IMG/VR virus record: IMGVR_UViG_3300018432_000001
Span: 64,001-128,000 of that record
Origin: a virus
DNA: 64,000 nucleotides
Direction: 5' to 3' (one strand)
Within the stretch, counting starts at the first letter, position 1. Each line of letters starts with the position of its first letter. The notes below the pieces were generated by a model, which had not been told where the DNA came from, made no database searches, and was given only the letters and a program-made list of their open reading frames with translations. Of this stretch, positions 678 to 25,095 are shown in pieces. A program made the position numbers and the translations under genes.

Positions 678-2192
678 CTAGAAGAGGTCCGTGGTGGCCC
701 AGTCGACCGGGTCGGCGTGGATGCTGATCCCGATCGGCGGTTCGATGACTTCGCCTCGTCCGTATCCAGATCCCTTGAGGAGTCCTTGTGCGAGGTAGAC
801 CGTGGCGTCGATGCGTCCGGGGCTCTCTCGGGAACCGGGCTGCCAGGTCGTCCACTGCTGGATGAGCTTGTCATGTTCGCCTACCAGGCGGATGTCGCCT
901 TGTACCCAGTATTGGGCAACGGGGTCCGCGCGAATGCGTTTTCCGTATCGGGCGCGAACTTCATCTATTCGGGGGATGGGGACATCAGGCGGAATGGCAC
1001 CGTCTTCTTCCAGATCGGACCATGCTGACTGGATCTGGAGCTTGCACATCTCGCCGCCGAAGTTCGTCTCCACGAAGATGACGTCGGCCATCAGCTCGTA
1101 GGACAGGAGGGCGACCTCGCGGGCCCATTCGGTGGGGCTGGCCTGGCGGGACTTGTCGTCGGTGATGTAGCAGCGGTTGTCGTCGCCGAGGAATCCGGCG
1201 ACGATCCCGGCTTCGTCGCCGCCTGCGGTGCCGGAGGGGTCGACGGCGACGGCGACGCGGAGCTTGTCGGGGAGTGGTTCCCCGGGGCGGTGGCGGGATG
1301 CTTCGATCTGTTCGAGGTTGAGCAGGGCGCCCTCAACGGGCTGGGGGTCGCACTGGAAGAGGGCGAACCAGTCGCGCTTGGACAGCGAGGACTGTAGGCC
1401 GCCCCAGTGGGCGAGGAGCGCGTTCTTGTCCTTGTGAGGGATTTTCGGGTGGCCGAGGGGTTCGCCGAGGGCGCGGCCGAGCGGATCGTTCGCGTCGACG
1501 GCGATCGCCGGGAGGCGGATGATGTCCCACTCGTCGCCTTCGCGTTGCAGGAGGCGACCGGCGATGTCGTCTTCATGCCAGCGGGTGAGGACGAGGACGA
1601 TGGGTGCGCCGGGGGAGCCTCGGGTGATGAACGTGGAGGTCCACCAGTGGTCGACGGCGTCGCGGAAGATCTTCGATTCCGCTTCATCGCGGTCTTTGTG
1701 AGGGTCGTCACAGATGAGTAGGTCGCCGTCATGGCCCGTGAGGCCCGAGCCCACGCCGACAGTTTTCATGCCGCCACCGGCAGTGAGTTTCCAGGCTTGG
1801 GCGGTCCGCTGCTCCGGGGAGATGGTCAAGCCGAGCTTGTGGCCGTGCTCGCGGACGGCCTTGCGGACGTCGCGGCCCCAGTTCTTGGCCAGGTCTGAGC
1901 CGTAAGCGGCGGCGACGACCTGGTGGTGGGGACGATGGGCGAGCCACCACAGCGGGAACTTCTTGGTGACCAGTTCGCTCTTGCCGGTGCGAGGCGGCGC
2001 GAAGATCATGAGCTTGCGCTTGCCGCCGGGCTGGCCCAGCCGCGCCAGGCGCTCGCCGATGAGGCGGTGGTGGGGGCAGATCTGATAGCGCGGTTCAAGC
2101 CACGCGCCGAGACTGGCGGGATCGTGAAGGGCCTGGACGCGCGCGGCGTAGGCGTACAGCTCCGCGTCAGACAACTTCGAAAGATCCGGCAT
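678..2192 (-). CDS. terL: terminase large subunit
   Basis: Walker A APPRTGKS, Walker B LLICDD, coupling motif LTRWHEDD, RNase H-like nuclease VAVDPS...DEAGI...IDA. Confidence 0.93.
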   Translation of the reverse strand: MPDLSKLSDAELYAYAARVQALHDPASLGAWLEPRYQICPHHRLIGERLARLGQPGGKRKLMIFAPPRTGKSELVTKKFPLWWLAHRPHHQVVAAAYGSDLAKNWGRDVRKAVREHGHKLGLTISPEQRTAQAWKLTAGGGMKTVGVGSGLTGHDGDLLICDDPHKDRDEAESKIFRDAVDHWWTSTFITRGSPGAPIVLVLTRWHEDDIAGRLLQREGDEWDIIRLPAIAVDANDPLGRALGEPLGHPKIPHKDKNALLAHWGGLQSSLSKRDWFALFQCDPQPVEGALLNLEQIEASRHRPGEPLPDKLRVAVAVDPSGTAGGDEAGIVAGFLGDDNRCYITDDKSRQASPTEWAREVALLSYELMADVIFVETNFGGEMCKLQIQSAWSDLEEDGAIPPDVPIPRIDEVRARYGKRIRADPVAQYWVQGDIRLVGEHDKLIQQWTTWQPGSRESPGRIDATVYLAQGLLKGSGYGRGEVIEPPIGISIHADPVDWATTDLF

Positions 2193-2238
2193 AACCCGAA
2201 TCTACCTGAATGTCCGTTTTATTCAGCTATGAGACGAG

Positions 2239-2547
2239 TGCGCCGCGCTGCCATCGAGGTTAGAGCCGTGAAGCAGCGCGGCGCGTAATCTCCCGCGCAG
2301 AAACCCCTGCGCAGCCTGCACGGCCGTGTCCGATGCACGCCGTGCACGGCAGGGTCCCACCCTGCGATCTGCGATTGCGCCGGGCGCCCCGCCTGAACGT
2401 CGGGACCATCGGAGCCTCCGATGCTACCTGGAGGTGTGGCCTCACTGGTGAGCGCGTCACTTCTCACCGCACCCAGCGTCTGGGCTAACGTCCGGCTCCC
2501 CCCTTGCGCGTAGGGGGCCGACTGGCGGCGAGACCACGGTATGCCAG
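2239..2547 (+). ncRNA. candidate structured non-coding RNA (hairpin train)
   Basis: About 11 back-to-back stems in a gap with no convincing ORF; G-U extensions favour the + strand. Confidence 0.4.
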
Positions 2548-2556
2548 CTACCTGGT

Positions 2557-2799
2557 TTATAGCATCTGGTCAGGGGCGTTGCTCAGCCACAAGCCGAACT
2601 CGGTGGTGCCTTCGGCGTGCACGCTGGAGTGGCTGACCATCCACATCAGCGCGGCTTGGCGCGTGTCGGCCGTGGCACAGGCACTGCACGAGCTGCGCCC
2701 CTGGCAGCAGATGATCACCGGATAGCAGTATCCGATGTCGTCGAGCAGCCGGTTGAACGACCACAGGGGACTGCCCACCAGCAGTGCGTCAGGGTTCAT
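2557..2799 (-). CDS. hypothetical protein (80 aa)
   Basis: TAGGAT -10-like hexamer 6 nt upstream of the ATG; Cys-rich. Confidence 0.55.
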   Translation of the reverse strand: MNPDALLVGSPLWSFNRLLDDIGYCYPVIICCQGRSSCSACATADTRQAALMWMVSHSSVHAEGTTEFGLWLSNAPDQML

Positions 2800-3148
2800 G
2801 CCCTGATCCTAAGCGCGGAGGTGGCGCGGTGAGGTCGTCTTCGCGGATGAAGTAGGCACGCGGCGCCGTCCACCACGCGATGGTCTGACCGCCGTCGCCG
2901 GTGAACGGCGCCTCGCCGTAGAGCACGAACACACCCGGGGCCACCGTGATGTACCCCTGGGGTGGATCGCTGCCATAGTCGTCCCGGTCGCGGCGACCCA
3001 CGTGGATCTGGATGCCCGGGTCGAGCTTGCCTTCCATGTCGGTGGCCCAGTCCGCCAGCCGCAGCATCAGCCGGGACTTCAGCGCGGGAGGACACACTAG
3101 GGTGATCGGCGGCTGGAACAGATAGGAATGGTCGACCTGCTCGCTCAC
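2789..3148 (-). CDS. hypothetical protein (~119 aa)
   Basis: GTG start (MSEQVDHSY) with GGAGG RBS, overlapping the upstream stop. Confidence 0.6.
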   Translation of the reverse strand: MSEQVDHSYLFQPPITLVCPPALKSRLMLRLADWATDMEGKLDPGIQIHVGRRDRDDYGSDPPQGYITVAPGVFVLYGEAPFTGDGGQTIAWWTAPRAYFIREDDLTAPPPRLGSGHEP

Positions 3149-3492
3149 ATGACCTCCGGATCTTTGAGGAGGTCGGCGGCCGTGATCGTGAATGATGGGC
3201 TGTGGAACAGCTCGTGCCACCAGCGCCAGCGGATCGTCTTGCCCCGCGAGGTGAACGGCAGCGGCCCGTACTGGTCGAGCATCGGTGCTTCCAGCGTCCA
3301 GTAGGCCATGCCACTGCAGCCGCAGGAGGAGCCGGTGCGGTAGTGCAGGCGCACATCCGTGCGGCCCTCGGAGGTGGCGCACCACGAGACCAGCGCCTGC
3401 GCGAGACGCTGTTTCACTGCTTTGTCCTGCGGCAGGAGTTCGATCAGGCGCGGATCGCGGCGCACCGATACGGACAGCACGGGATCTCTCAT
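3145..3492 (-). CDS. hypothetical protein (~115 aa)
   Basis: ATG (MRDPVLSV) in ATGA overlap with the HIT gene stop. Confidence 0.6.
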   Translation of the reverse strand: MRDPVLSVSVRRDPRLIELLPQDKAVKQRLAQALVSWCATSEGRTDVRLHYRTGSSCGCSGMAYWTLEAPMLDQYGPLPFTSRGKTIRWRWWHELFHSPSFTITAADLLKDPEVM

Positions 3493-3911
3493 GACTGCTC
3501 CACCTCGGCAGGCGTCGGTGTCCACGGGAGCACGATTCCGTCGCCTTTGCTTCTGGGCAGGTAGTGCAGATGGAGGTGGTCGACGGTCTGGGTCGCTTCG
3601 GCGCCGACGTTGATGATGAGGTTGAAAGGTCTGCGCTGGGCAAGGGCGTACTGCCAGGCGGCCATCCACATGTACGCGGTCGGCGAGTGGCTGACGGCGA
3701 CGCCGTGGTCTTTGGTGACGTGCAGGCGCGGGATGAACAGCACGTGGCCCTCGACGCGAGGGTTGAGGGGGACGATCGCGATGGCGTTGGTGAACTTGGC
3801 GACGACCTGGGCGGGCGCCTGACCGGTGATGATCTGGCAGAACGGGCACGGATCGCTGGAGCGGGCGTCCCCCTCGGTGGTGCTCGCTGCTTGACTGGAC
3901 GCCCGCGTCAT
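3489..3911 (-). CDS. HIT (histidine triad) family hydrolase
   Basis: CPFCQI, P..EGHVLFIP..H, N.G..A.QTV.HLHLH. Confidence 0.9.
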   Translation of the reverse strand: MTRASSQAASTTEGDARSSDPCPFCQIITGQAPAQVVAKFTNAIAIVPLNPRVEGHVLFIPRLHVTKDHGVAVSHSPTAYMWMAAWQYALAQRRPFNLIINVGAEATQTVDHLHLHYLPRSKGDGIVLPWTPTPAEVEQS

Positions 3912-11384: not shown

Positions 11385-13136
11385 ATGACGCTCGACGAAC
11401 TCATCGAGGCGCTGAACGGTCTCGATGCCGAGGAGCGGCTCGCGCGAATCGAGCAGCTCGTCGGCGAAGTCTCTGAAGACGACCTGGCCGCCATCCGCGA
11501 CGCCGCCATCGAAGCCGCGCAGGCCTACATCGACGAAGTTCCCAGCGACGAGGCATCGATCGCCCGCGCTGAGGCCCTCGCCGTGATCCTCGACGCGATC
11601 GACCGGCGCACCGGCGATGCCGAGACCGCAACCGAAGCCACCGAAGCCGAGGAAGCCGACCTCGAAGCCACAGCCGCTCGTGCGGCCTCGGCCGAAGAGG
11701 TGGCCGAGCCCGCCCGCGAAGGCGAACTCGTCGCCGCTGATGGAGCTCCGCAGACCCAGAAGGCGAGTAATCAGATGCCGATCCCGCTGGCCCAGGCTGC
11801 CTCCGTCGCCCCGACGCAGGTGACCGCAGGCGAACGCACCGACCGTGTGAAACACACCGTCGTGGCCGCAGGCGATCTTCCCGACTATCGCGGGGGCACC
11901 GAGCTGCCGGACACCAAGGCGATCGCCGCCGCTGTCCAGGCCGGTATGACCGTCGTCTCCCGCTCCCAGGCCCCGGGCGTGCGCCAGGGCCTGTGCTCCA
12001 TCAAGCGCGAGGCACCCGACCACCTCAACTACACCGGAGCCAGCGACTGGCTCAAGGTCGACGAGGTCACCAACCAGAAGAACCTCCCGGGCAAGTCGCT
12101 CGTCGCCGCTGGCGGATGGTGCGCCCCCTCCGAGGTGCTTTACGACGTTTGTCCAATTCCTGTCTCTAGGGACGGAATGGTCGATTTGCCGACCATCACC
12201 GCGACGCGCGGCGGCGTCAAGTACTCGCGTCGGCCCGACTTCGCCCCGTTCTGGTCCCTTGTGGGCTTCGAACAGACGGAAACGGACGCTATCGCCGGAG
12301 TTGAGAAGCCTTGCTTCGAAATTCCGTGTCCTGATGATTTGTCCGAATGCCGGATGGACATCGAGGGCATCTGCCTCATCCAGCCGCTGCTCACCGAGCG
12401 CGGCTGGCCGGAGAAAGTCGAGGAATTCGTCGAGTACGCGATGCTTGCGCACGCGCACCGCATCAACGCCCGGCGCATCGAGCGCATGGTCGACATGGCC
12501 ACCTGGGCCATCACCGTTCCCGGCCCCGTCCGCAGTCCCGCCGACAACACGCTGCCCTCCACGGGCTACACCGTCGATGACCACGGCCCGGGTGCGTTCG
12601 AATCGCTTCTGAGCGTGCTCGAACTGCAGGTCGAGTTCTTCCGCTACTCCATGCGCCTGAGCCGCACCGCGCTGCTCGAAGGCATGGCGCCGTACTGGTT
12701 GCGGGGCCTGCTCCGTGCCGACATCTCCAAGAAATTGGGGATCGACAACCGCTGGGGCATCGCCACCGACGAGATCCTCGACCGGTGGTTCGCCGACCGA
12801 GGTGTCCGAATTCAGTGGGTTTACGACTGGCAGGACAGTATGTCCGAGCAGGACCCCGCTGCGTTCGGTGGTACGCCTCCGACCAAATGGCCGGAAGAGG
12901 TGTCGATCCTCCTGTGGGAGCCGGGCACGTACTTTGCCCTGCAGCAGGACGTCATCAACCTCACTGGGGTGTATGACCGAATCGACCTGCAGCGCAACAT
13001 CTACACCCGTCTGTTCACCGAAGAGGGATTCGCGGTGTGTGCCCGTTGCGGGCGTTCCATGCTCATCACCATTCCTCTGTGCCCGAACGGACTTTCCGGC
13101 TCGCAGGAGCTCACCGTCTGCTCGACGACCGCGTAA
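11385..13136 (+). CDS. major capsid (hexamer) protein
   Basis: Acidic N-terminal scaffold region, then LVAAGGWCAPSEVLYD, DLP.I...RGG, QWVYDWQ, LFTEEG. Confidence 0.88.
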   Translation: MTLDELIEALNGLDAEERLARIEQLVGEVSEDDLAAIRDAAIEAAQAYIDEVPSDEASIARAEALAVILDAIDRRTGDAETATEATEAEEADLEATAARAASAEEVAEPAREGELVAADGAPQTQKASNQMPIPLAQAASVAPTQVTAGERTDRVKHTVVAAGDLPDYRGGTELPDTKAIAAAVQAGMTVVSRSQAPGVRQGLCSIKREAPDHLNYTGASDWLKVDEVTNQKNLPGKSLVAAGGWCAPSEVLYDVCPIPVSRDGMVDLPTITATRGGVKYSRRPDFAPFWSLVGFEQTETDAIAGVEKPCFEIPCPDDLSECRMDIEGICLIQPLLTERGWPEKVEEFVEYAMLAHAHRINARRIERMVDMATWAITVPGPVRSPADNTLPSTGYTVDDHGPGAFESLLSVLELQVEFFRYSMRLSRTALLEGMAPYWLRGLLRADISKKLGIDNRWGIATDEILDRWFADRGVRIQWVYDWQDSMSEQDPAAFGGTPPTKWPEEVSILLWEPGTYFALQQDVINLTGVYDRIDLQRNIYTRLFTEEGFAVCARCGRSMLITIPLCPNGLSGSQELTVCSTTA

Positions 13137-14651: not shown

Positions 14652-16181
14652 ATGGCTGAGACTTCTACCGTCCGAGGCCGGATGGCCCGGTTCACGCGCC
14701 TGGACGACATGGGTCGTCCGCTGTACGGACCGGGCAACCAGGCCGTCACCAAGGGCATCATTTCGGTCACCTACACCCCGAACGTCACCGAAGGCGAAGC
14801 CACCTCGGTCACGAACTTCGCGGGCGAACAGTGCATCTCGGCCCCCGCGCCGTGCGCGACCATCGACAACTGGACCGTCGGCGTCGAATTCTGCGCCGTC
14901 GACCCTTGTGTCGTCCTGATGATCTACCCGTCCTGGATTCCGATTTATGACGATTTCGGGTCGATCAAGGGTTTCCAGATCGTCGGCGGCCTGTCGTGCG
15001 ACGTCGGTTTCGCCCTGGAGATCTGGGGCCAGATCGGATCGGCAGGGTCGGCCATCCAGTGCGGACCGGGCGCCGTCTCGGGCTCCACGTACTGGCTCGC
15101 GCCGCGCCTCGTGGGCGCCGCTCCCGGCGAAATCACGATCAGTAACGAAGCGACTTCATTCACGTTCAACGGGACCACCACGAGCCCCGTGGGTTGGCGC
15201 CGTGGCCCGTACCTGGTCGACATCGTCAACGGCGTGCCCTCGGTCCTGCGCGACCCGGTCGACTCGGCCGCGCAGCTCGTGGAGTTCACCACGCAGGTGC
15301 GTCCGCCCGAGCCCACCAACGGCTGCGTGGAGCTGCCGCGACCGGTCCCGGAGGAAGCGAGCGTCATCATCGACCGCGTTCCCACCGACGACACCGGCAT
15401 GTGCGCGCGCTTGATCATCGACAACCATGGATTTGGCCCGGTGACGGTGAACTGGGGCGACGGTTCGGACCCCGAGACCAGCGGCGACTGCTCGACCATC
15501 ACCCACTGCTACGCCACGCCGGGCACCTACACGGTGTGCGTCGCCGACCAGCAGACTCCGGCAATCTCGACCTGCCGCGACATCGTCGTGCCGATGCCTG
15601 CCGACCAGCCGACCATGACGCTGGCCGTCGACCCGACCGACGACATGTGTGTCATCGCCACCATCGACATGCCGCCGCAGTCCGATGGACGCGTCGAAGT
15701 CACCTGGGGCGACGACACTGCCGCGTCCACGGTCGAAATCACGCCGGGCACGCCAGTGGAAGTGCGCCACTGCTACGCCACGCCGGGCGTCTACACCGTC
15801 CGTGCCGTGCGCGTGGAGCAGCCGGACTACTACACCACCGCAACCGTCGTGGTGCCGGTCATCGCCAACCCCATGGTGTCGGCCGCCGTCGACGGCCAGG
15901 TGGTCACGCTGACCGTTGACAACAACGGCAACGGGCTGACCACTGTGGAGTGGGGCGACGGCACCACGACCTCCGGTCCGAACACGGACGGAGGCAACGT
16001 CCAGCACACCTACGCCGCCGACGGCACCTACTCGATCACGGTCACTTCGGTGTCCAACCCACTCTCGACCACCACGGTGCAGGTCACCATCGGTGCCGCT
16101 CCAGGCCTCCAGGCCGGAGTCGATGCCGATGAAGGCGATGTGTCGGGCATGACGGTCGAAGTCACCTGGAACAACGCCTAG
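14652..16181 (+). CDS. major tail protein with three C-terminal PKD/Ig-like domains
   Basis: R.TRLD..G.P, FC.VDP, GFALEIW tube domain; three W-G-D...H.Y...G.Y.V repeats. Confidence 0.82.
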   Translation: MAETSTVRGRMARFTRLDDMGRPLYGPGNQAVTKGIISVTYTPNVTEGEATSVTNFAGEQCISAPAPCATIDNWTVGVEFCAVDPCVVLMIYPSWIPIYDDFGSIKGFQIVGGLSCDVGFALEIWGQIGSAGSAIQCGPGAVSGSTYWLAPRLVGAAPGEITISNEATSFTFNGTTTSPVGWRRGPYLVDIVNGVPSVLRDPVDSAAQLVEFTTQVRPPEPTNGCVELPRPVPEEASVIIDRVPTDDTGMCARLIIDNHGFGPVTVNWGDGSDPETSGDCSTITHCYATPGTYTVCVADQQTPAISTCRDIVVPMPADQPTMTLAVDPTDDMCVIATIDMPPQSDGRVEVTWGDDTAASTVEITPGTPVEVRHCYATPGVYTVRAVRVEQPDYYTTATVVVPVIANPMVSAAVDGQVVTLTVDNNGNGLTTVEWGDGTTTSGPNTDGGNVQHTYAADGTYSITVTSVSNPLSTTTVQVTIGAAPGLQAGVDADEGDVSGMTVEVTWNNA

Positions 16182-16191
16182 GAGGGCTGCC

Positions 16192-17493
16192 ATGACCGTC
16201 ACCATTCAATGGGACGCCGATGCTCCATTGACGGCCCAGCCCGACGCGGGCACCGCAACGAAGGTGTACACGACTGCAGGGCCCGGAACCGTGACCATCA
16301 CCGACGAGGCCATCGGCGGTGACAGCGTCACGCTGGACTACACCGTGCCGCTGGAAATGACCACAGTGGTGCCGACTCCGAACACGGCCGATTCGGCCGG
16401 GACCGCCGAAGAGCGCACCATCTCGGTCGCTGGCGAGGGCTTCCCGGCCAGCATGGCGGGCACCGTGGCCATCGCCACGGGCGTGCCCGGCGCGTTCGGG
16501 ACCACGCTGGTGTCGACCTCGGCCACCACCAACACCGCCGGGATCTTCACCGACGTCGACGTGGTGGTGCCAAGCGATGCTGCCGCCGGTGACTACCACC
16601 TGGAAGTCAGCTTCGGGGCCATCGTGGACCTGTCGGCTGCGATCACGCTCACCAACACCGAGCTCGCTGCGCCGACGTCGCTCGCGTCGCCGTCGCAGAC
16701 CTCGACCACGGTCACCCTGACCTGGGCGGCAGTGACCGACGCCGAAACGTATGTGGTCCGTTCCTCGCCTGCAGGCGCTGGTACTTGGGTCGAGCGTGCC
16801 CCGGTGGCGGTTCTGACCGACACGGTCTCGGCGCTCACCGCGTTGACGAGCTACGACTTCCAGGTCAAGGCGCAGGCCACGGGCTCGACCGATTCGCCGT
16901 GGTCGACCACGCTCACGCAGTCCACGACCGCGCAGCCGGTGCTGGACGCACCGGCGAACCCATCGGCGGGCACGCCGACGACCACGACCATCCCGTTCTC
17001 CTGGGATGCGGTCACCGACGCCGAAACGTACACCGTCGAATGGCGGATCAGCCCGGCCGGAGCCTGGACCGCAATCGACAGCATCGCCACCACCAACACC
17101 ACGGTCAGCGGCCTGGACCCGAATACGACGTACGACCTGCGGGTCAAGGCCGTCGCTGATGGATTCACGGACTCTCCGTTCTCTGCAGTCGTCACCGAGT
17201 CCACCGATTCGCTGGGCACGTTGGCCGCTCCGACCGGTATCGCCAGCCCGTCGCAGACGGCCACGACGATCGACCTCACGTGGGACGCGGTTCCCAATGC
17301 CACCAGCTACGGCATCGAACGGTCGCCTGCGGGGGCCGGGACGTGGGTCGAAGTGCAGACCGCTGGGACGAACGCTGCGACGGTGACCGGCATGGTCGCC
17401 AGCACTTCATATGACTTCCGGATTTCGGCTCGCGCCGCCGGATGGGTCGACTCGGACTGGTCGGCCACGTTCACCCAAGCCACCACCGCTTAA
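16192..17493 (+). CDS. Ig-like plus 3x fibronectin type III virion protein
   Basis: Three L.AP......T.....W......Y......W.......L.....Y...V.A repeats. Confidence 0.85.
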   Translation: MTVTIQWDADAPLTAQPDAGTATKVYTTAGPGTVTITDEAIGGDSVTLDYTVPLEMTTVVPTPNTADSAGTAEERTISVAGEGFPASMAGTVAIATGVPGAFGTTLVSTSATTNTAGIFTDVDVVVPSDAAAGDYHLEVSFGAIVDLSAAITLTNTELAAPTSLASPSQTSTTVTLTWAAVTDAETYVVRSSPAGAGTWVERAPVAVLTDTVSALTALTSYDFQVKAQATGSTDSPWSTTLTQSTTAQPVLDAPANPSAGTPTTTTIPFSWDAVTDAETYTVEWRISPAGAWTAIDSIATTNTTVSGLDPNTTYDLRVKAVADGFTDSPFSAVVTESTDSLGTLAAPTGIASPSQTATTIDLTWDAVPNATSYGIERSPAGAGTWVEVQTAGTNAATVTGMVASTSYDFRISARAAGWVDSDWSATFTQATTA

Positions 17494-17511
17494 GCAGAGA
17501 GGAGAGCCGCT

Positions 17512-19737
17512 GTGCCTATCGTGTTGCAGCCTGTCGACCAGCTCGCGCACAACGAGCTGGCGCAGCGGCTCGCCTGCTGGGCCAAAGCCGAAGACGGCTT
17601 CACCGACAATGCCCTGATCTACCAGTCCTGCTGTGTCTCCCCCACCGGGCAGACGCTGGGCCGGTGGGTCGTTGACGAAGCGCTGTGCGCCGAGTACGGG
17701 CCGTTCGACTTCACCGCCAACGAAGGCGACGTTATTGTCTGCCCGACGCCGGGTTCGGCCGAGTACACCAACTACTACATCTACGACGACGACGTCCACG
17801 CTATCGACCCGAACACCTGCATCGAGCAGCTGCTCGCGGCGCCGACAGGCCTGAACTCGCCCACGCAGGGACCCACCACCGTGGACCTGGCGTGGGACGC
17901 CGTCCCTGACGCTCAGCGGTACGTCGTCCGCTGGTCTTTGGCTGGTCAGGACGACTGGACGGAGCTGGCGCCCACGTTCCTGCTGACCGCCGAGGTCACG
18001 GGCCTGACCGACGAAACGAGCTACGACTTCCAGGTGCAGGCGATCGCCGTGGGCTTCGTCGACTCGCCGTGGTCGGCCACGCTCACGCAGGCCACCACCT
18101 CGCTGGGGACGCTCGCAGCGCCTACGGGGCTCGCGACCCCATCGGCCACCGGTACCACCATCGACGTCACCTGGAACGCCGTCGACAACGCCACCGGGTA
18201 CACCGTGGAATGGTCGCCCACCGGCGCTGGAACGTGGACTCCGGCGACCACGGCCACGAACTCGTACACGATCACCGGTCTGACCTTGGACACGTCCTAC
18301 GACATCCGCGTCAAGGCGACCGCACCGGGCTGGACCGACTCGCCGTATTCGGCCCAGATCATCGGCTCTACCGAGGCGCAGCTCGCCACTCCGGCGGGGC
18401 TCGCGTCGCCCTCGCAGACCGGCCTGACCGTGAACCTCACGTGGTCGGCGGTCACCGACGCCAACGAGTACGTCGTGCGCTGGTCTCCGGCCGGTGCGGG
18501 CACCTGGACTGAACTGGCGCCAGTAGGCATCACTAGCGCGACGGTGTCCGGTTTGACCGCCTCTACCAGTTACGACTTCCAGGTCAAGGCCCAGGCCGAG
18601 GACTTCGTCGACTCCGCGTGGAGCACCACGCTGACCCAGTCCACGGCGGCTGTCCTGGCGACGCCGGTACTGACGAGCCCATCGCAGACGGACACCACGG
18701 TCGCTTTGACCTGGGGTGCAGTGCCGAATGCGACGTCGTACACCGTGCAGTGGTCGCTGGCGCCGTCCGGTTCCTGGAACGCCATGCCGGACGTGTCGGG
18801 TACCGGGCAGACCGTCACGGGCCTGACCGCTGCCACGTCCTACCGGTTCCGGGTGCTGGCGCACGCTGCCGGTTGGACCGACTCCGCGTGGTCGGCCGAG
18901 CTGACTCAGGCGACCGATGCCGCCCTGGCAGCGCCGACCGGGGTGAACAGCCCATCGCAGACCGCCTCGACGATTGACGTCGCATGGACTGCCGTGGCGG
19001 GCGCGGACGGGTACACCGTCGAATGGTCCCCGGCGGGTGCGGGCACGTGGACGCCTGCGACGAACGCGGACACCACATACACGATCATCGGGCTCGCGGC
19101 CGACACCGCCTACGACATCCGCATCAAGGCCACCGCGACCGGGTTTGCCGACTCGGCGTACTCGACGGTGCTCACGCAGTCGACGCTGGAAGTGCAGCTC
19201 GCTGCACCGACCGGGTTCGCGAGCCCCTCGCAGACCGACACGAGCATCAACACGTCCTGGGACGCCGTTGACGACGCCGAGTCCTACGTCGTGGAGTGGT
19301 CCCCGGCGGGTGCAGGCACGTGGACCCCGGTCCCCGCTGCCACGACTACCCAGGAGATCACGGGTCTCTCAGCCGCCACCAACTACGACCTTCGGGTCAA
19401 GGCGATCGCAGACGACCACATCGACTCGACCTACGCAACGCTCACGCAGGAAACGCATGGGCCGCTGCTCGCGCCGACCGGTCTCGCCAGTCCCTCCCAG
19501 ACGTCGACCACGGTCGACCTCACCTGGAACGCGGCCATCAACGCCGATTTCTACGTCGTGCGCTGGTCGCCTGCGGGGGCCGGGACCTGGACTGAGGAAC
19601 CGCAGGTGTCGGGGACCTCGGACACCGTCTCGGGGTTGACGGCCTCGACTTCATATGACTTCCAAGTCAAAACCATTGCGGACGGTTTCGCCGACTCTGG
19701 CTGGTCCGGCTCGCTTACCCAGTCAACTACCGCCTAG
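17512..19737 (+). CDS. 7x fibronectin type III virion protein
   Basis: ~100-aa Cys-containing N-domain followed by seven FN3 repeats. Confidence 0.85.
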   Translation: MPIVLQPVDQLAHNELAQRLACWAKAEDGFTDNALIYQSCCVSPTGQTLGRWVVDEALCAEYGPFDFTANEGDVIVCPTPGSAEYTNYYIYDDDVHAIDPNTCIEQLLAAPTGLNSPTQGPTTVDLAWDAVPDAQRYVVRWSLAGQDDWTELAPTFLLTAEVTGLTDETSYDFQVQAIAVGFVDSPWSATLTQATTSLGTLAAPTGLATPSATGTTIDVTWNAVDNATGYTVEWSPTGAGTWTPATTATNSYTITGLTLDTSYDIRVKATAPGWTDSPYSAQIIGSTEAQLATPAGLASPSQTGLTVNLTWSAVTDANEYVVRWSPAGAGTWTELAPVGITSATVSGLTASTSYDFQVKAQAEDFVDSAWSTTLTQSTAAVLATPVLTSPSQTDTTVALTWGAVPNATSYTVQWSLAPSGSWNAMPDVSGTGQTVTGLTAATSYRFRVLAHAAGWTDSAWSAELTQATDAALAAPTGVNSPSQTASTIDVAWTAVAGADGYTVEWSPAGAGTWTPATNADTTYTIIGLAADTAYDIRIKATATGFADSAYSTVLTQSTLEVQLAAPTGFASPSQTDTSINTSWDAVDDAESYVVEWSPAGAGTWTPVPAATTTQEITGLSAATNYDLRVKAIADDHIDSTYATLTQETHGPLLAPTGLASPSQTSTTVDLTWNAAINADFYVVRWSPAGAGTWTEEPQVSGTSDTVSGLTASTSYDFQVKTIADGFADSGWSGSLTQSTTA

Positions 19738-19750
19738 TTAGGAGATAGCC

Positions 19751-20638
19751 ATGCCTATCGTGCTCCAGCCGATCGATCAGATCGCTAAAAAGGAGTTGGC
19801 TCAGCAGCTGGCCTGCTGGGCGCGGGCCGCCAACGGCCTGACCGACGTCGCCGTCCAGTACGGTACCTGCTGCGTCTCGCCGACCGGCGAGACGTTGGGG
19901 CGTTGGACGATCCCCAACGACCTCTGCACCACGTACGGTGAGCTTCCGTTCACCGGAAATAACGGGGAGACGATCGTCTGCCCGCCCGTCGGGTCGGCCG
20001 AGTACGTCTCGTACTACATCTACGACGAAGACGTCGACCCGATCGACGTGGACACCTGCACGCCGCTGGTGGCGCTCGATGCGCCGACTGCGCTCGCGGC
20101 CGGGACCCCGACCGACACCACCATCCCGCTGACCTGGGTCGCCTCGGCGAACGCCAACGGATACACGGTGTCGTACTCCTCGGACTCGGGCACGACCTGG
20201 CTGGAGGTACAGGCCACCGGCAGCCCGTTCACGCTGACGGGGCTGACGCCGGAGACGACGTACACCATCCGCATCCGCGCGACCGACTCGACGAATACGT
20301 TCGCGAAGTCGCCGTGGACGAGCACGGTCACCGCCACCACGGAGTCTTCGCTGCCTGAGCTGGACGTCCCAGAGAACCTGGCGACCGGTACTCCAGCGGC
20401 GACCGAGATGCCGCTGACCTGGGATGCGGTCACGAACGCCGTGTCGTACCACGTCCAGTACAAGACGACGGCATCGTCGACGTGGCTGGACTTCGCGACC
20501 GAGCCGGTCACGCCGTCGACCACGGTCACGGGCCTGGTGACCGCAACCAGCTACGACTTCCGGGTGCGCGCCAACGCCGACGACATCTCGTTCTCGGACT
20601 CGGACTACAGCGCGCCGGTCACCGAGACCACCGCGTAA
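19751..20638 (+). CDS. 2x fibronectin type III virion protein (paralogue of the previous gene)
   Basis: N-domain MPIVLQP.DQ....ELAQ.LACWA...CCVSPTG.TLGRW shared with 17512; two FN3 repeats. Confidence 0.85.
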   Translation: MPIVLQPIDQIAKKELAQQLACWARAANGLTDVAVQYGTCCVSPTGETLGRWTIPNDLCTTYGELPFTGNNGETIVCPPVGSAEYVSYYIYDEDVDPIDVDTCTPLVALDAPTALAAGTPTDTTIPLTWVASANANGYTVSYSSDSGTTWLEVQATGSPFTLTGLTPETTYTIRIRATDSTNTFAKSPWTSTVTATTESSLPELDVPENLATGTPAATEMPLTWDAVTNAVSYHVQYKTTASSTWLDFATEPVTPSTTVTGLVTATSYDFRVRANADDISFSDSDYSAPVTETTA

Positions 20639-20644
20639 GCGACA

Positions 20645-20689
20645 TGGAGGTGCCCGGCTCTCCTCGAAAGAGAGAGCCGGGCACCTCCA
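20645..20689 (+). terminator. terminator-like hairpin
   Basis: 18-bp inverted repeat TGGAGGTGCCCGGCTCTC / GAGAGCCGGGCACCTCCA after the FN3 genes. Confidence 0.7.
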
Positions 20690-20721
20690 GTTCCAACTTA
20701 TCGTCCCTTTTGGAGGGGTAT

Positions 20722-21474
20722 ATGCCGAGTATCAAGTGGTACCCGGACCGTACGGTACCGCGCAAGGGCAAGGCCCGCGTCATCGATGTGCCGCAGGCGT
20801 ACACGCTGTCCTTCGGGGATGGCAACACGATCGCGAAGGACGCCGACGACGTCTACCCGTACACCTATGCGGCGGCAGGCCCGTACGCGTTGAACGTGAC
20901 GCTGGTCGGCGAGACCGAACCGGCGGCGTCGCTGCTGCTGAACGTGCTGGACGCAACGGTCCCGAACGTGACTATCTCGGCTCCGGCCAACACGCAGAAG
21001 ATCCGGGTGGCGTTCAACGACCCCGAGATGCCCGTCGTGGGCCGCTACACGGTGGACTGGACGTCGACGGAGAGCGAAGATGTGCTCGCCGAGCCGGACA
21101 AGTACGTGGAGCGGCTCTTCGCGCCGGGCACGTATCCGATCCGGGTCACCGACCACTGGTCGGGACTGTCGGTGGTGCAAGACGTGGTGGTGGCGGCGGT
21201 GGCTGACGATCCGGGTTTTAGCCTCGCCGAGGACACGTCCGATGTCTCGCGGATGACAGCAGAGCTCGAAGTGCTCGCGGTTCCCTCGGCAGAACCCGAA
21301 GAGACTCTCACCGTCGACTGGGGCGATGGCCAAACCGAGACGCTCGCCGCCATCGTGGGCACAACGGCCTCACATGCTTACGCCTATGACGATGAGTACA
21401 TGGTGGAGCTCGCGTACACCGCTGAGCCCGCGAAGAACACCACGCAGTTCGTGTGGCTGCCGTTCACGGATTAG
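20722..21474 (+). CDS. PKD/Ig-like domain virion protein (250 aa)
   Basis: GGAGG RBS; YTLSFGDG...YTYAAAGPY, YTVDW...PGTY, VDWGDG...HAYAYD. Confidence 0.8.
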   Translation: MPSIKWYPDRTVPRKGKARVIDVPQAYTLSFGDGNTIAKDADDVYPYTYAAAGPYALNVTLVGETEPAASLLLNVLDATVPNVTISAPANTQKIRVAFNDPEMPVVGRYTVDWTSTESEDVLAEPDKYVERLFAPGTYPIRVTDHWSGLSVVQDVVVAAVADDPGFSLAEDTSDVSRMTAELEVLAVPSAEPEETLTVDWGDGQTETLAAIVGTTASHAYAYDDEYMVELAYTAEPAKNTTQFVWLPFTD

Positions 21475-21488
21475 TCCCGGAAGCAAGG

Positions 21489-21521
21489 AGCGGCCCTGAC
21501 GTTGCGCACGTCAGGGCCGCT
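21489..21521. terminator. hairpin between convergent PKD gene and tRNA-Met
   Basis: 13-bp inverted repeat AGCGGCCCTGACG / CGTCAGGGCCGCT. Confidence 0.7.
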
Positions 21522-21524
21522 TTG

Positions 21525-21598
21525 TCGCGGGGAGCGGATTTGAACCGCCGACCTTCAGGTTATGAGCCTGTTGAGCTACCGAACTGCTCCACCCCGCT
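21525..21598 (-). tRNA. tRNA-Met(CAT), initiator-type
   Basis: AGCGGGGTGGAGCAGTTCGGTAGCTC...CTCATAA...GGTTCAAATCC; 1-72 mismatch (A:G); D-arm like bacterial tRNA-fMet. Confidence 0.88.
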
Positions 21599-21792
21599 GC
21601 GCGTCTCTGAGTGTAGCTGGTGTGCGGTGACGTCCTTTTCGAGTTGGTCCATGAGGGCGACCGACGAGGTCGTGCCCACGTACAGGCACGCCATCCGAGA
21701 ATTCGGCAAAGAGTATACACAACACCCTCATGTCCGTTTTGTCGTCTATAGTATGAATGACGTGGGTTTTTATTGCTAAGGAGGTCAGGCTG

Positions 21793-23361
21793 ATGGCGAT
21801 CGCCCAGTACTCCGACCTGTTCTGGTATCCCTCAGGCACGCTGGCCACCGGCATCCAGGTACGCATCTTCGAACTCAACGACAACGTGTTCGCCCCGCTC
21901 TTCTCCGACCCCGCCGGAACCATTCCCCTTGCCAACCCGATGACCACCAGCGCCACCGGCACCATCTCGTTCTACGCCGAGCAGGGCGAGTACTGGATGC
22001 ACGCCGACTCCGAGAGTTTCCGGATCGGCGTCGGCCTGTCCCCGGTGACCCCGGAGACGATCGCCGCCATCGAAGCGGACGTGGCTGCGCTGCAAACCGA
22101 CATGACAGCGGTCGAAGGCGACGTCACGGGCCTGCAAACCGCCGTAGCTACTGCGCAGGGCGACATCACGGCACTTCAGGGTGATGTAACGGCAGCGCAA
22201 GGGGACATTACTGCCTTGGAAGGGAACGTCGGAACCCTCCAGACCGACATGACCACCGCGCAGGGCGACATCACCGCGCTGCAGACCGGTTTGGGCACCG
22301 CGCAGGGCGACATCACCGCGCTGGAAGGCGACATGGCTACCGCGCAGGGCGACATCACCGCGCTGGAAGGCGACATGGCTACCGCGCAGGGAGACATCAC
22401 CGCGCTGGAAGCGGCCATCGAGGTCACGGAAAAGGCGGCAGCATCCACACTGTCGACAGGCGTCTCTGCCGGTGGTGAGTTGAACGTCAACGGTGTGAGT
22501 TCTTCGGCGATTGATATCGCTCCGCTGGTCGGGTACATCACGTCGTTCGACATCGATCCGTTCAATCCTGCCATCACCCGCATCGAATACCCCGGCGGGA
22601 CTGTGGAGATGGACGCGGGCGCGCTCTCGCGGACCGCAACGGCGTGGTTGATGGACGTCAACCAGGTGATTACGCAGCAGGCGACGCCGCCCACGAATTC
22701 GCAGCGTCGCACCCACATCTTCTTGGGTATCACCGCGCAAGTCGGCGGCGTCATCATCGTCGACCAGACGTTGCAGACCATTCTGCAACAACCCGCCAAC
22801 CAACTGTCCGACCTGCTGAACTCGCTCGGCGCGTTCAACATCTCGGGGAACATCATCTCTGCCAACGGCGCGAACCTCATGATCAACCAAACGGCTGGAA
22901 CGATGTTCGCCCAGTCGTTCAACCACTTCATGGGCCCCGTGCAGACCAACGACCCGCATGTGAACACGACGATGGCGCAGACCCCGGCGAACTTCCGGTA
23001 CGCCACCCGCGACCCGAACACGCCGTTCGGGCTGCTTCGCAACACCATCGACGTCGCGAACTACGACAACGCAGGCGTCATCACGCCGATCGGCGGCGGC
23101 GCGAACTCCGCGACGATTCACCGCGTGTACCTGTTCGCGAACAACACCGCGAACGAGCAGATCGCCATCCAGTACGGGCAGAGCGTCTATGCGTCGCTGT
23201 CCGCAGCCGTCAACGCCATCGGTTCGGGCACGTTCGTGCAGAACCCGCTCATGAACGCCGCTGCCCTGCTGGGGCACATCTGCGTCATCCGGACCGCAAC
23301 CAGCCTCGCCGACCCCGCGCAAGCCATCTTCGAAACCGCCGGAAAGTTCGACACCCCGTAA
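21793..23361 (+). CDS. coiled-coil fibre / minor structural protein (522 aa)
   Basis: AAGGAGG RBS; N-terminal anchor (LFSDPAG...ANP......G...FYA); heptad repeats QGDITAL; beta-rich C-terminus. Confidence 0.75.
   Translation: MAIAQYSDLFWYPSGTLATGIQVRIFELNDNVFAPLFSDPAGTIPLANPMTTSATGTISFYAEQGEYWMHADSESFRIGVGLSPVTPETIAAIEADVAALQTDMTAVEGDVTGLQTAVATAQGDITALQGDVTAAQGDITALEGNVGTLQTDMTTAQGDITALQTGLGTAQGDITALEGDMATAQGDITALEGDMATAQGDITALEAAIEVTEKAAASTLSTGVSAGGELNVNGVSSSAIDIAPLVGYITSFDIDPFNPAITRIEYPGGTVEMDAGALSRTATAWLMDVNQVITQQATPPTNSQRRTHIFLGITAQVGGVIIVDQTLQTILQQPANQLSDLLNSLGAFNISGNIISANGANLMINQTAGTMFAQSFNHFMGPVQTNDPHVNTTMAQTPANFRYATRDPNTPFGLLRNTIDVANYDNAGVITPIGGGANSATIHRVYLFANNTANEQIAIQYGQSVYASLSAAVNAIGSGTFVQNPLMNAAALLGHICVIRTATSLADPAQAIFETAGKFDTP
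22297..22410 (+). repeat. 42-bp tandem repeat (14 aa, TAQGDITALEGDMA)
   Basis: ACCGCGCAGGGCGACATCACCGCGCTGGAAGGCGACATGGCT twice plus a partial copy; degenerate copies upstream. Confidence 0.9.
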
Positions 23362-23372
23362 GGAGATAGGTC

Positions 23373-24212
23373 ATGCCGGTCATCAACGTCGCGCCGACCG
23401 TCGCGGACGGTGAGGGAAACGCGCTGTACCCGTGCGAGCCGTGGCCGATCAACCCTGTGTGCTGCCCAGGGTGGCCTGCCGACCCGGCCGAGTGGGACCC
23501 CGCGCATTATGACGCTCAGTGGCTGGCCACGGTCGAGCTCTGGCGCGCGGTCGCCGGAGTCATCGGGCTGTGCCGGACCACTGAGCTGCCGTGTCTGGAC
23601 CAGTGCGTGGCGCGCCCGCTGGAGGCGTACTGGATGCGTCCCTACCGGGACGTCAACGGCGCCTGGTTCAACTCCAAGTGCGGATGCCGCGATACGTGCT
23701 CGTGCTCGCAGCTGTGCACGGTAACCCTCCAGGGGCCGGTGTACTCGATTGAGTCGGTCACCGTCGACGGCGTCGCCCTGGAGAGCGATGAGTGGAAGCT
23801 GCTCACCAACAACCGGCTCGCCCGCTGCGGCGGATGCTGGCCCGCCTGCCAGGACTACTGCACCGAGGACGGTCTCGTCGTCACCTACCTGCGCGGCATT
23901 CCGCCAGGCCTGGACGCCATCCGCGCCGTCAGCATCCTCGCCTGCCGCCGACTCCAAGAATGCCCACCAAGTGGCGGCGACTGCGGCACACTGCCCTCCG
24001 GCGTCACCAGCATCAACCGTGAAGGGCTGAACATGCAGCTGGACTCGACCATCGGGGCCGGGGAAGACGGCGTCATCCACTTCACCGGCATCGCCCGGGT
24101 TGATCGATGGATCGCTTCGATCAACCCCTACGGCGTCACCTCGAACCCATCCGTGTGGTCGCCCGACGTCGACACCTCGCAGGTCTGGCGCACCGGCACG
24201 GTGACGCCATGA
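23373..24212 (+). CDS. head-to-tail adaptor
   Basis: A...LW.....G.C, W.N..CGC...CSC, GPV..I..V.VDG, WP.CQD, LP..VTS, VD.WI...NP, SPD. Confidence 0.78.
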   Translation: MPVINVAPTVADGEGNALYPCEPWPINPVCCPGWPADPAEWDPAHYDAQWLATVELWRAVAGVIGLCRTTELPCLDQCVARPLEAYWMRPYRDVNGAWFNSKCGCRDTCSCSQLCTVTLQGPVYSIESVTVDGVALESDEWKLLTNNRLARCGGCWPACQDYCTEDGLVVTYLRGIPPGLDAIRAVSILACRRLQECPPSGGDCGTLPSGVTSINREGLNMQLDSTIGAGEDGVIHFTGIARVDRWIASINPYGVTSNPSVWSPDVDTSQVWRTGTVTP

Positions 24213-24433
24213 TCCCGTTGATCGTGAGTCTGGTCTACACCGTTGCCATGCTGTTCACCGCACGCATGCTCTACCGCAACGCCGTCACCAGCGGCTTCGA
24301 CGTCACCACTCCCGCGCGCCTATTCATGGGCGTCGGCTTCGCCCTGATCTATGCGCTGGCATGGCCGCTGCTGCTGCTGGGCATCGGGGCGGTGCGTTTC
24401 ATCGTGCACCGCGCCAAGGGAGACGTCGCGTGA
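24209..24433 (+). CDS. small two-TM membrane protein (74 aa)
   Basis: ATGA and GTGA overlaps with both neighbours; two hydrophobic helices; holin possible but unsupported. Confidence 0.65.
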   Translation: MIPLIVSLVYTVAMLFTARMLYRNAVTSGFDVTTPARLFMGVGFALIYALAWPLLLLGIGAVRFIVHRAKGDVA

Positions 24434-25095
24434 ACGTCCTGGACTACCTCGAAGACGAGCTGCTGTCGTGCCTGTGCTCGATGCTGCGCACCGAAGGGCG
24501 TCCAGCTTGCGAGTGCCATCACTTCGGCGGTGACGTGCCGCCAGTCGGGGACCGCTGCCAAGCCAACACTGCCGGAGAGAACGGTCAAGTCTGGGTTCGC
24601 CGCATCTCGCAGGCGATCGAGGTCGATCCCGAAGACATCACGTTCGGTGGCCTCCCGTGCGCGAGTTCCTGGCAGGCGCAGATCGAGCTGGGCATCTACC
24701 GGTGCATCACCGCCATCCCCGACGACAACGGGAATGCACCATCACCGGCGGCCTACGACGCCGACCGGGATCTGCTCGTCGCTGATCGGGCGACCCTCGC
24801 GCAGGTGCTGTGCTGCTGGCCACTGGTCGGTGAGGCGCCCACTCCGGTGCCCTTCGACCTGCCTATCTCGGTGATCGCGGCGCAGATCCTGCCACTGGGG
24901 CCCACCGGAGGGTGTGCCGGTTCGATCTTGACGCTCGTTGTCAACGCGCCGCTCATCGTCGAAGAGCCCGTGGCGCAGCTGGTCGCCGGTGTCGATGCCG
25001 ATCCTGCCGACCCGAGTGGTCAGACCGCCGTGGTCACCTGGCGAAACGAACCTGCGGAGGAGGTCTTCATTTCGCGTCCAGCCGGAGGTGGTTAA
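24430..25095 (+). CDS. putative tail terminator / connector (221 aa)
   Basis: GQVWVR, IELGIYRC, GPTGGC.G motifs; position after the adaptor. Confidence 0.6.
   Translation: MNVLDYLEDELLSCLCSMLRTEGRPACECHHFGGDVPPVGDRCQANTAGENGQVWVRRISQAIEVDPEDITFGGLPCASSWQAQIELGIYRCITAIPDDNGNAPSPAAYDADRDLLVADRATLAQVLCCWPLVGEAPTPVPFDLPISVIAAQILPLGPTGGCAGSILTLVVNAPLIVEEPVAQLVAGVDADPADPSGQTAVVTWRNEPAEEVFISRPAGGG

Follow-up and report, generated by a model that had tools for sequence, protein, structure and literature searches.

The window analysed here is a stretch of 64,000 nucleotides, bases 64001-128000 of the 142,477-base-pair record of an uncultured actinophage, with direct terminal repeats (IMG/VR record IMGVR_UViG_3300018432_000001). 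Its structural operon encodes a major tail protein that ends in an orphan beta-hairpin (tag 1), and the gene directly downstream, here called ORF2 (for open reading frame 2), opens with an incomplete domain related to the PKD repeats of that tail protein. A second copy of the hairpin (tag 2) is encoded further downstream, in a protein of the phrog_810 family. The coordinates of these features are given in Table 1. A preliminary description of the window had proposed that the hairpin is a docking segment for the product of ORF2, and we evaluate that proposal with homologues, alignments and structure predictions.

Table 1. Features of the window that belong to the divided domain or to the second gene carrying the hairpin.
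Feature	Coordinates	Strand	Description
Major tail protein gene	14652..16181	+	509 residues: tube domain, three complete PKD repeats (residues ~236-481), C-terminal orphan hairpin
Tag 1	16107..16178	+	24-residue beta-hairpin ending the tail protein; strands A and B of a fourth PKD-like domain; kept in 15 loci
Stop codon, ribosome-binding site and spacer	16179..16191	+	TAG overlapping AGGAGG; 10-nucleotide gap before the ORF2 start
ORF2	16192..17493	+	433 residues: half PKD-like domain, Ig-like domain (residues 56-155), three FN3 domains; Pfam fn3 in three stretches
Putative socket	16192..16350	+	First 53 residues of ORF2; strands C to G of the split PKD-like domain
phrog_810-family neck/connector protein gene	24430..25095	+	221 residues from GTG 24430 (longest open reading frame starts at 24361); after the head-tail adaptor phrog_783
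Tag 2	24979..25047	+	Same hairpin, as a ~28-residue cassette near the C-terminus of the phrog_810 protein

One domain cut between two genes

Residues 1-367 of the tail protein match phrog_792 ('major tail protein', E 3e-55), and the third of its complete repeats passes the Pfam PKD models (PF00801 / PF18911) with 50.9 bits against a cut-off of 23.5. The 23-residue segment that constitutes most of tag 1 (16107-16175) is followed by a single alanine and the TAG stop codon (16179-16181). ORF2 lies in the +1 frame relative to the tail gene and has its own ribosome-binding site (AGGAGG) and ATG, and this start coincides exactly with the beginning of the remainder of the split domain. In a profile made from the tail proteins' own PKD repeats, ORF2 residues 3-53 match positions 21-72 of 72, i.e., all but the first two strands, and the comparison of the ORF2 start with the repeats of the tail protein gives z 6.8. 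No promoter-like or terminator-like site was seen on the + strand at the junction of the two genes.

ORF2 is the only gene in the 142-kilobase genome that starts with a half-domain (a strand of the W-D-x-D type right after the start). All 31 ORF2 homologues (59-100% identity) begin at the same residue, as do more distant representatives (50%-identity clusters, 342-668 residues), one of which was called a few residues short. The preliminary description had the tail protein ending in an orphan segment after three complete PKD repeats, and gene 16192 opening, out of frame and behind its own ribosome-binding site and a 10-nucleotide gap, with the part that the segment lacks. Each of these statements is confirmed.

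An unsplit counterpart was identified in the tail protein of locus L033 (L033 4109-5998, 629 residues). This protein has three PKD repeats, then an intact fourth domain in which a tag-like hairpin is separated by four residues from a remainder that resembles the start of ORF2, and finally two orphan tags. Tag 1 joined to ORF2 residues 1-56 aligns end to end on the intact domain, leaving a gap of 2 residues where the pieces meet (score 153, shuffles 33.7 +/- 6.8, z 17.6). The pieces also match it when taken separately (tag 1, z 5.8; tag 2, z 11.9; ORF2 start, z 14.1). By sequence homology, we conclude that tag 1 and the start of ORF2 are two consecutive parts of one domain, cut between genes. 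In L033 the stop codon and the ORF2 start are only 2 nucleotides apart, and it is possible that its tail protein is a picture of the ancestral state plus a later duplication of the tag. Intact domains with tag-like first hairpins are also present in L035 and L036.

The two parts might nevertheless be reunited in cis, if recoding (a frameshift, readthrough or a short ribosomal hop) fused the tail protein to ORF2, as in SPP1 gp17.1*, and the split only set the ratio of short to long products. We consider this improbable. IMG/VR, JGI metagenomes and Logan assemblies supplied 15 loci, in which the identity of the tail proteins falls to 66%; L023 duplicates L005, and 13 to 14 of the loci are distinct. 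In every one of the 15, a stop codon is followed, after a gap of 9-16 nucleotides, by an ATG at the same residue, and the gap contains a GGAGG-type site (GGAGG itself or, at a minimum, GGAG or a run rich in G). TAG is the stop throughout, ORF2 is in frame with the tail gene in four of the loci, and a fusion would yield a B-C loop of normal length. These features would suit recoding, as would the GCC codon repeated before the ATG in the window clade and the L035 family (see below). No single event, however, fits the observed frames, which are 0, +1 and +2 in 4, 7 and 4 loci, respectively. In L005 a TAA follows the TAG, two stops are present in L030, and the matching codon is missing in L033 (2-nucleotide gap), L034 (TAA stop) and L021. 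Further, a GGAGG-type site and an ATG stand at the exact domain boundary everywhere, and the invariant TAG is explained by its overlap with the ribosome-binding site (TAGGAGG). The tandem tags and the tag of the neck protein, described below, have no downstream half with which to fuse. A longer, fused form of the tail protein and ORF2 was not found among longer proteins, which is weak evidence.

Thus, the variable relative frame and gap, the ribosome-binding site and ATG that ORF2 keeps and the double stop of L005 exclude a conserved frameshift or readthrough, and a recoding product would be at most a minor side product in some lineages. This agrees with the earlier claim that simple stop readthrough cannot fuse the two genes. 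A single fused or frameshifted product in homologues, which the preliminary description named as the outcome contrary to its proposal, is not what the loci contain, as all 15 keep two separate genes.

At the same junction, the last sense codon of the tail gene (GCC, before the TAG) recurs directly before the ORF2 ATG (window 16176-16194), and this is also the case in L035 (529-546). The recurrence holds for the window clade and for the L035 family, which is unrelated, and is not seen in L021, L033 or L034; GCC precedes only ~4% of likely starts in the genome. It could permit a rare ribosomal hop in those lineages, or it could be due to chance; a hop is neither general nor needed.

A hairpin that occurs in two proteins

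Tag 2 is identical to tag 1 at 15 of 23 residues and at 44 of 69 nucleotides (BLASTP E 5e-5). A motif scan of the six frames of the 142,477-base-pair genome placed the hairpin at these two sites only, and within the relatives' DNA that was collected tags are likewise confined to the tail protein and the phrog_810 protein. Both tags are kept in relatives down to 66% tail-protein identity.

The second tagged protein matches phrog_810 (function unknown; E 2.9e-14, residues 25-172). GTG 24430 is its more likely start, rather than 24361, because of where its homologues start. It has no Pfam match, and a PDB profile search of its alignment returned nothing relevant. Its neighbours in a protein atlas include a terminator family (score 0.85), which is a lead only. 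A weak similarity was noted between the part of this protein that precedes the tag (window 24832-24930) and the first hairpin of PKD repeat 1 of the tail protein (15330-15419; 14 of 33 identical, E 1.0). The resemblance may be fortuitous; alternatively, a hairpin of this kind may terminate the conserved core of phrog_810.

The tag of the phrog_810 protein was kept in all nine of the relatives first examined. A larger set comprises 39 usable homologues with 50-97% identity (a 40th match, whose C-terminus did not align, was left out). The tag occupies the site seen in the window in 16 of the 39, is cleanly absent through a 28-residue indel in 22, and is found in another loop in one (P0116). In P0116 the window's site is empty and the tag lies ~45 residues upstream (residues ~140-165). 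Its second strand is identical to that of the tail-protein tag of the window, which points to an independent copy event from the tail gene. In addition, two orphan tags in tandem end the tail proteins of L005, L006, L033, L034 and L035. The observed range is thus zero to one copy in the neck protein, at two alternative loops, and one to two orphan copies in the tail-tube protein.

The gene downstream of the phrog_810 protein does not encode a half-domain. Because neither the tandem tags nor the phrog_810 tag have a half-domain in cis, they would, if functional, have to be completed in trans. In every locus with a tagged tail protein, the half-domain gene is directly downstream. The cultured relatives, Arthrobacter phage SilentRX and Microbacterium phage Fregley, have neither the tag nor the half-domain gene. 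As regards the preliminary description, the finding of the same segment on a second protein at 24979-25047 was correct, its view of the segment as a reusable module is borne out by the clean indel, the different loop in P0116 and the tandem copies, and the co-occurrence of tag and N-terminal half that it proposed as a check was found in homologues. Its label of 'tail terminator' for 24361-25095 is not supported, as phrog_810 is the only match.

Divided domains were also identified in other lineages. In L035, which belongs to a different family, a PKD protein ends in two hairpins and the gene after it opens with the canonical strand-C motif. On L036, from another actinophage lineage, one such junction lies at 1495-3737, where a tail protein stops just after PKD strand C, and the next gene, which overlaps it by GTGA, supplies the rest. 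Elsewhere on L036 (7257-8987) a 252-residue protein starts with a half-domain and ends with a hairpin, and a gene that begins at strand C follows 9 nucleotides later. These two contexts rest on single contigs, and the first L036 junction could be an assembly error; the start of the L036 gene is shared by a second 50%-identity cluster (P0057).

Could the hairpin be a neutral remnant of gene fission? In such a case a stop and a start would have arisen inside the fourth PKD domain, the hairpin would be decaying and ORF2 would no longer be part of the virion. Fission did occur, because the unsplit, ancestor-like domain exists in L033, and to this extent the remnant explanation is in accord with the data. 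However, the hairpin keeps seven invariant residues across 14 tail proteins with identity down to 65%, and decaying remnants are not duplicated in tandem or copied into a second protein at two sites. The independent splits in L035 and L036 also argue against it. We regard it as extremely improbable.

Completion in trans and its precedents

From these sequence comparisons, we think it probable that the hairpin is a portable plug that is completed in trans by ORF2, and that it serves to hang Ig/FN3 arms on the tube and the neck. In this reading, a PKD-like beta-sandwich has been cut in its B-C loop. The putative plug, an A-B hairpin of ~24 residues, remains on the tail protein as a C-terminal tag and has also been copied as a cassette into the phrog_810 neck protein, and the putative socket, strands C to G, is the N-terminus of the separately translated ORF2. 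The tail protein and ORF2 would be made from one transcript, probably with translational coupling, which is suggested because the ORF2 ribosome-binding site overlaps the stop codon of the tail gene. The ORF2 half-domain would have one complete four-strand sheet and another sheet without two of its three strands, a gap that the hairpin would fill in trans.

The ORF2 arms (the composite PKD-like domain, the Ig-like domain and three FN3 domains) would then extend the three PKD repeats of every tube subunit. About eight Ig-like domains would thereby make up the arm on each tail-tube subunit, and the same arm would decorate the neck. The number of tag copies would set the valency. Thus, we infer physical binding, its stoichiometry and a role for the arms; by analogy with other Ig-like tail decorations, they probably give weak adhesion to cell-surface glycans.

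Another role for the hairpin is conceivable. It could cross-link neighbouring arms by hairpin pairing, bind calcium or a host glycan, or dock a different partner, such as the cysteine-containing anchor domain of the FN3 proteins encoded at 17512 and 19751 (see below). The ORF2 N-terminus would in that case be stable as a domain of four strands, attached elsewhere or unattached. In favour of this, a prediction for ORF2 by itself (AlphaFold2) has a mean predicted local distance difference test (pLDDT) of 93, and four strands (2-7, 13-17, 30-38, 45-52) are obtained in residues 1-55, where the block means are 73-89 in the absence of the tag. The tag itself has low confidence in the single-chain model, tandem tags could pair together, and the acidic D-x-D-x-x-D turn of the tag is conserved in the alignment of tail proteins. 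However, the two pieces correspond by homology to adjoining parts of a single intact domain, the cut is at exactly the same loop in every homologue, and tagged tail proteins and half-domain genes are always together and adjacent. The orphan tags retain the residues conserved in the cis hairpin, as expected if they enter the same fold. Moreover, to judge from beta-sandwiches in general, a sheet of four strands whose core lies open would probably not be stable as a domain by itself. On balance we find a different role for the hairpin unlikely. The preliminary description treated the ORF2 N-terminus as incomplete by itself, and here the result is divided: only four strands form alone, but these are predicted fairly confidently.

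As a surrogate for the complex of tag and ORF2, we modelled a single chain across the junction of L002, which is naturally in frame. The chain runs from the third PKD repeat through the tag, a Q in place of TAG and three spacer residues to ORF2 residues 1-155, and its alignment had unpaired rows from both proteins. The composite region is predicted, with low confidence, to have seven strands in the same order and pattern as the adjacent intact PKD repeat. The ORF2 half contributes five strands vs. four when alone; the additional strand, at residues 19-26, occurs only in the composite, as expected if it pairs with the second strand of the tag. The intact repeat in the model resembles the solved PKD domain 6aem (VIA; Z 10.8, 75 residues aligned, root-mean-square deviation (rmsd) 1.9 Å), and model residues 1-157 superpose on the two tandem FN3 domains of 6mfa (VIA; Z 9.4, 145 residues aligned, rmsd 4.8 Å). 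A Foldseek search with the model returned only generic strings of Ig-like domains. We take the model to indicate a compatible topology and not to be evidence of binding.

Several results weigh against completion of ORF2 by the tag. In the surrogate model, the pLDDT of the tag is 52-58 and that of the ORF2 half falls to 60-80, so that the topology is obtained without a confident interface. AlphaFold does not flag the ORF2 N-terminus as unfolded without the tag, because it is predicted fairly confidently alone. One type of ORF2 would have to accept two tags that differ at 8 of 23 positions. No PKD match to ORF2 residues 1-57, or to the intact fourth domain of L033, was found in Pfam even at E 5; we call the split domain PKD-like because the similarity is to the tail protein's own repeats while the Pfam PKD models miss it. 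Lastly, the preliminary description equated the tag with the first two strands of these repeats. When the tag alone is compared with the three repeats of its own tail protein, the similarity is not significant (z 0.8) and the best local match is to the strand-C motif of repeat 2. The assignment to strands A and B is therefore weak on the window alone, but the homology of tag 1 to the first hairpin of the L033 domain stands and is decisive.

Incomplete Ig-like folds are known from chaperone-usher pili (Fim, Pap), in which the missing G strand is supplied by an N-terminal extension, with the involvement of a periplasmic chaperone and an usher, and very stable non-covalent joints result. The split domain described here would similarly be completed by a strand from another polypeptide. 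In contrast to the pili, two N-terminal strands (A and B) are missing and the donor hairpin is C-terminal or internal. All of the surrounding genes are structural genes of the phage, chaperone and usher genes are absent, and assembly would be cytoplasmic. The preliminary description drew on these pili as its precedent; they serve as a functional analogy for strand completion, but they are not the closest case.

The closest solved precedent is the baseplate of Lactococcus phage Tuc2009, in which a 25-residue C-terminal hairpin of BppU completes a sheet of domain 2 of BppA, to form an Ig-like (titin-like) composite seen in the crystal structure (mBio 2016, PMC4742702). In both systems a terminal hairpin of ~25 residues (here 24 residues with two predicted strands) belongs to an anchoring virion protein, and the partner has a beta-sandwich without those strands (here the ORF2 start, at profile positions 21-72 of 72). 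Both would attach an accessory, probably glycan-binding, protein to the virion, as we infer for ORF2. They differ in site (the baseplate in Tuc2009; the tail tube and neck here) and in polarity, as the acceptor half is at the C-terminus of BppA and at the N-terminus of ORF2. No sequence relation was detected in a PDB profile search with ORF2 residues 1-155, which returned nothing relevant. Unlike its Tuc2009 counterpart, the tag of the window phage is shared by two proteins, may be doubled in tandem, changes loops and has a traceable source in an intact domain.

Ig-like or FN3 domains also project from the tail tubes of other phages (lambda gpV, T5 pb6, SPP1 gp17.1*). Those extensions are fusions or frameshift products, are dispensable for tube assembly and have been proposed to mediate weak adhesion (PMC8718954). 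In the SPP1 gp17.1* type there is one polypeptide with a fixed frame, unlike the two genes found here, each with its own ribosome-binding site and ATG and in variable relative frame. In the nozzle of the Pseudomonas podophage A1002, a tail domain split between two genes is rebuilt by strand-level complementation, as observed by cryo-electron microscopy (PLoS Biol 2026, PMC13730344). That case differs in that the folds are the beta-propeller and platform of the nozzle, the domain is part of the structural core, and there is no portable tag. Finally, SpyTag/SpyCatcher is an engineered split of the Ig-like CnaB domain, in which a peptide tag completes its partner and works when grafted (PMC5487036). 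It is man-made and locked by an isopeptide bond, unlike the natural split reported here, for which there is no evidence of a covalent bond. We regard chaperone-usher pili and tag/catcher pairs as functional analogies only. The literature searched, of which coverage was incomplete, contained no description of a split PKD domain linking a tail-tube protein with a decoration protein, which does not prove that none exists.

A broader proposal is that the hairpin is a self-sufficient natural 'tag' and the ORF2 N-terminus its 'catcher', that phages set the place and number of arms by inserting, duplicating or deleting the cassette, and that split PKD domains are a general decoration code. We put this forward tentatively, as a little short of an even chance. 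It includes the suggestion that the same principle operates in other actinophage lineages (L035 and L036), with other cut points and as daisy chains.

If completion in trans is correct, non-covalent docking via a gene-split domain and a portable 24-residue tag would be a third route for Ig-like tail decoration, beside fusions and frameshifts. It would explain how the number and position of adhesion arms vary without alteration of the core of the tube protein, and would carry over to tail tubes and necks a mode of attachment for which the Tuc2009 baseplate is the one solved case. Small, natural and possibly orthogonal tag/catcher pairs for the display of proteins on phage particles could be a further outcome. 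For annotators it is a warning that a short 'extra' segment at a C-terminus and an Ig domain that seems 'N-terminally truncated' can be the two halves of one interface.

Genomic setting and other modules

The structural operon begins with the major capsid protein (11385-13136, phrog_777), a phrog_779 protein and the major tail protein. Three FN3 proteins (16192, 17512 and 19751), a PKD protein (20722) and a fibre-like protein (21757) follow. Next are the head-tail adaptor (23373, phrog_783), the phrog_810 protein, further neck/chaperone genes and the tape measure gene (26740). The gene order is the same in SilentRX and Fregley, whose tail proteins are ~300 residues long and end in one complete PKD-like domain, and whose post-adaptor protein has ~165 residues. 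Homologues of the tube domain were found in 793 actinophage records at 30-36% identity. A search of the window DNA against cultured phages gave no match, and neither did tblastn with the phrog_810 protein. A prophage or host search of 185,579 genomes gave no relative.

A candidate covalent link was considered for ORF2, namely a SpyTag-like isopeptide lock between its invariant K24 and aspartates of the tag. It was dropped because K24 stands where PKD domains have the conserved His of their H-x-Y motif, and there is nothing else in its favour.

The FN3 proteins encoded at 17512 (741 residues) and 19751 (295 residues) have in common an N-terminal, cysteine-containing domain of ~105 residues (61% identity, E 2e-50; window 17512-17850 and 19751-20090) that is present in all relatives. 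It has the appearance of another type of anchor module, shared by FN3 stalks that differ in length.

The protein encoded at 20722-21474 has 250 residues and three PKD-like domains, with a weak Pfam PKD_4 match, and is missing from the shorter relatives L005 and L006. Comparison of the tag with this protein gave a weak 12-residue match, ~2 standard deviations above shuffles, so that the L033 domain is the more convincing intact counterpart. A short D-V-S-x-M-T-x-E motif is common to the tag and to hairpin 1 of the third domain of this protein. On the minus strand at window 21524-21598, ARAGORN identified a gene for tRNA-Met (anticodon CAT), which lies within the structural operon, antisense between the gene for this PKD protein and that for the fibre-like protein.

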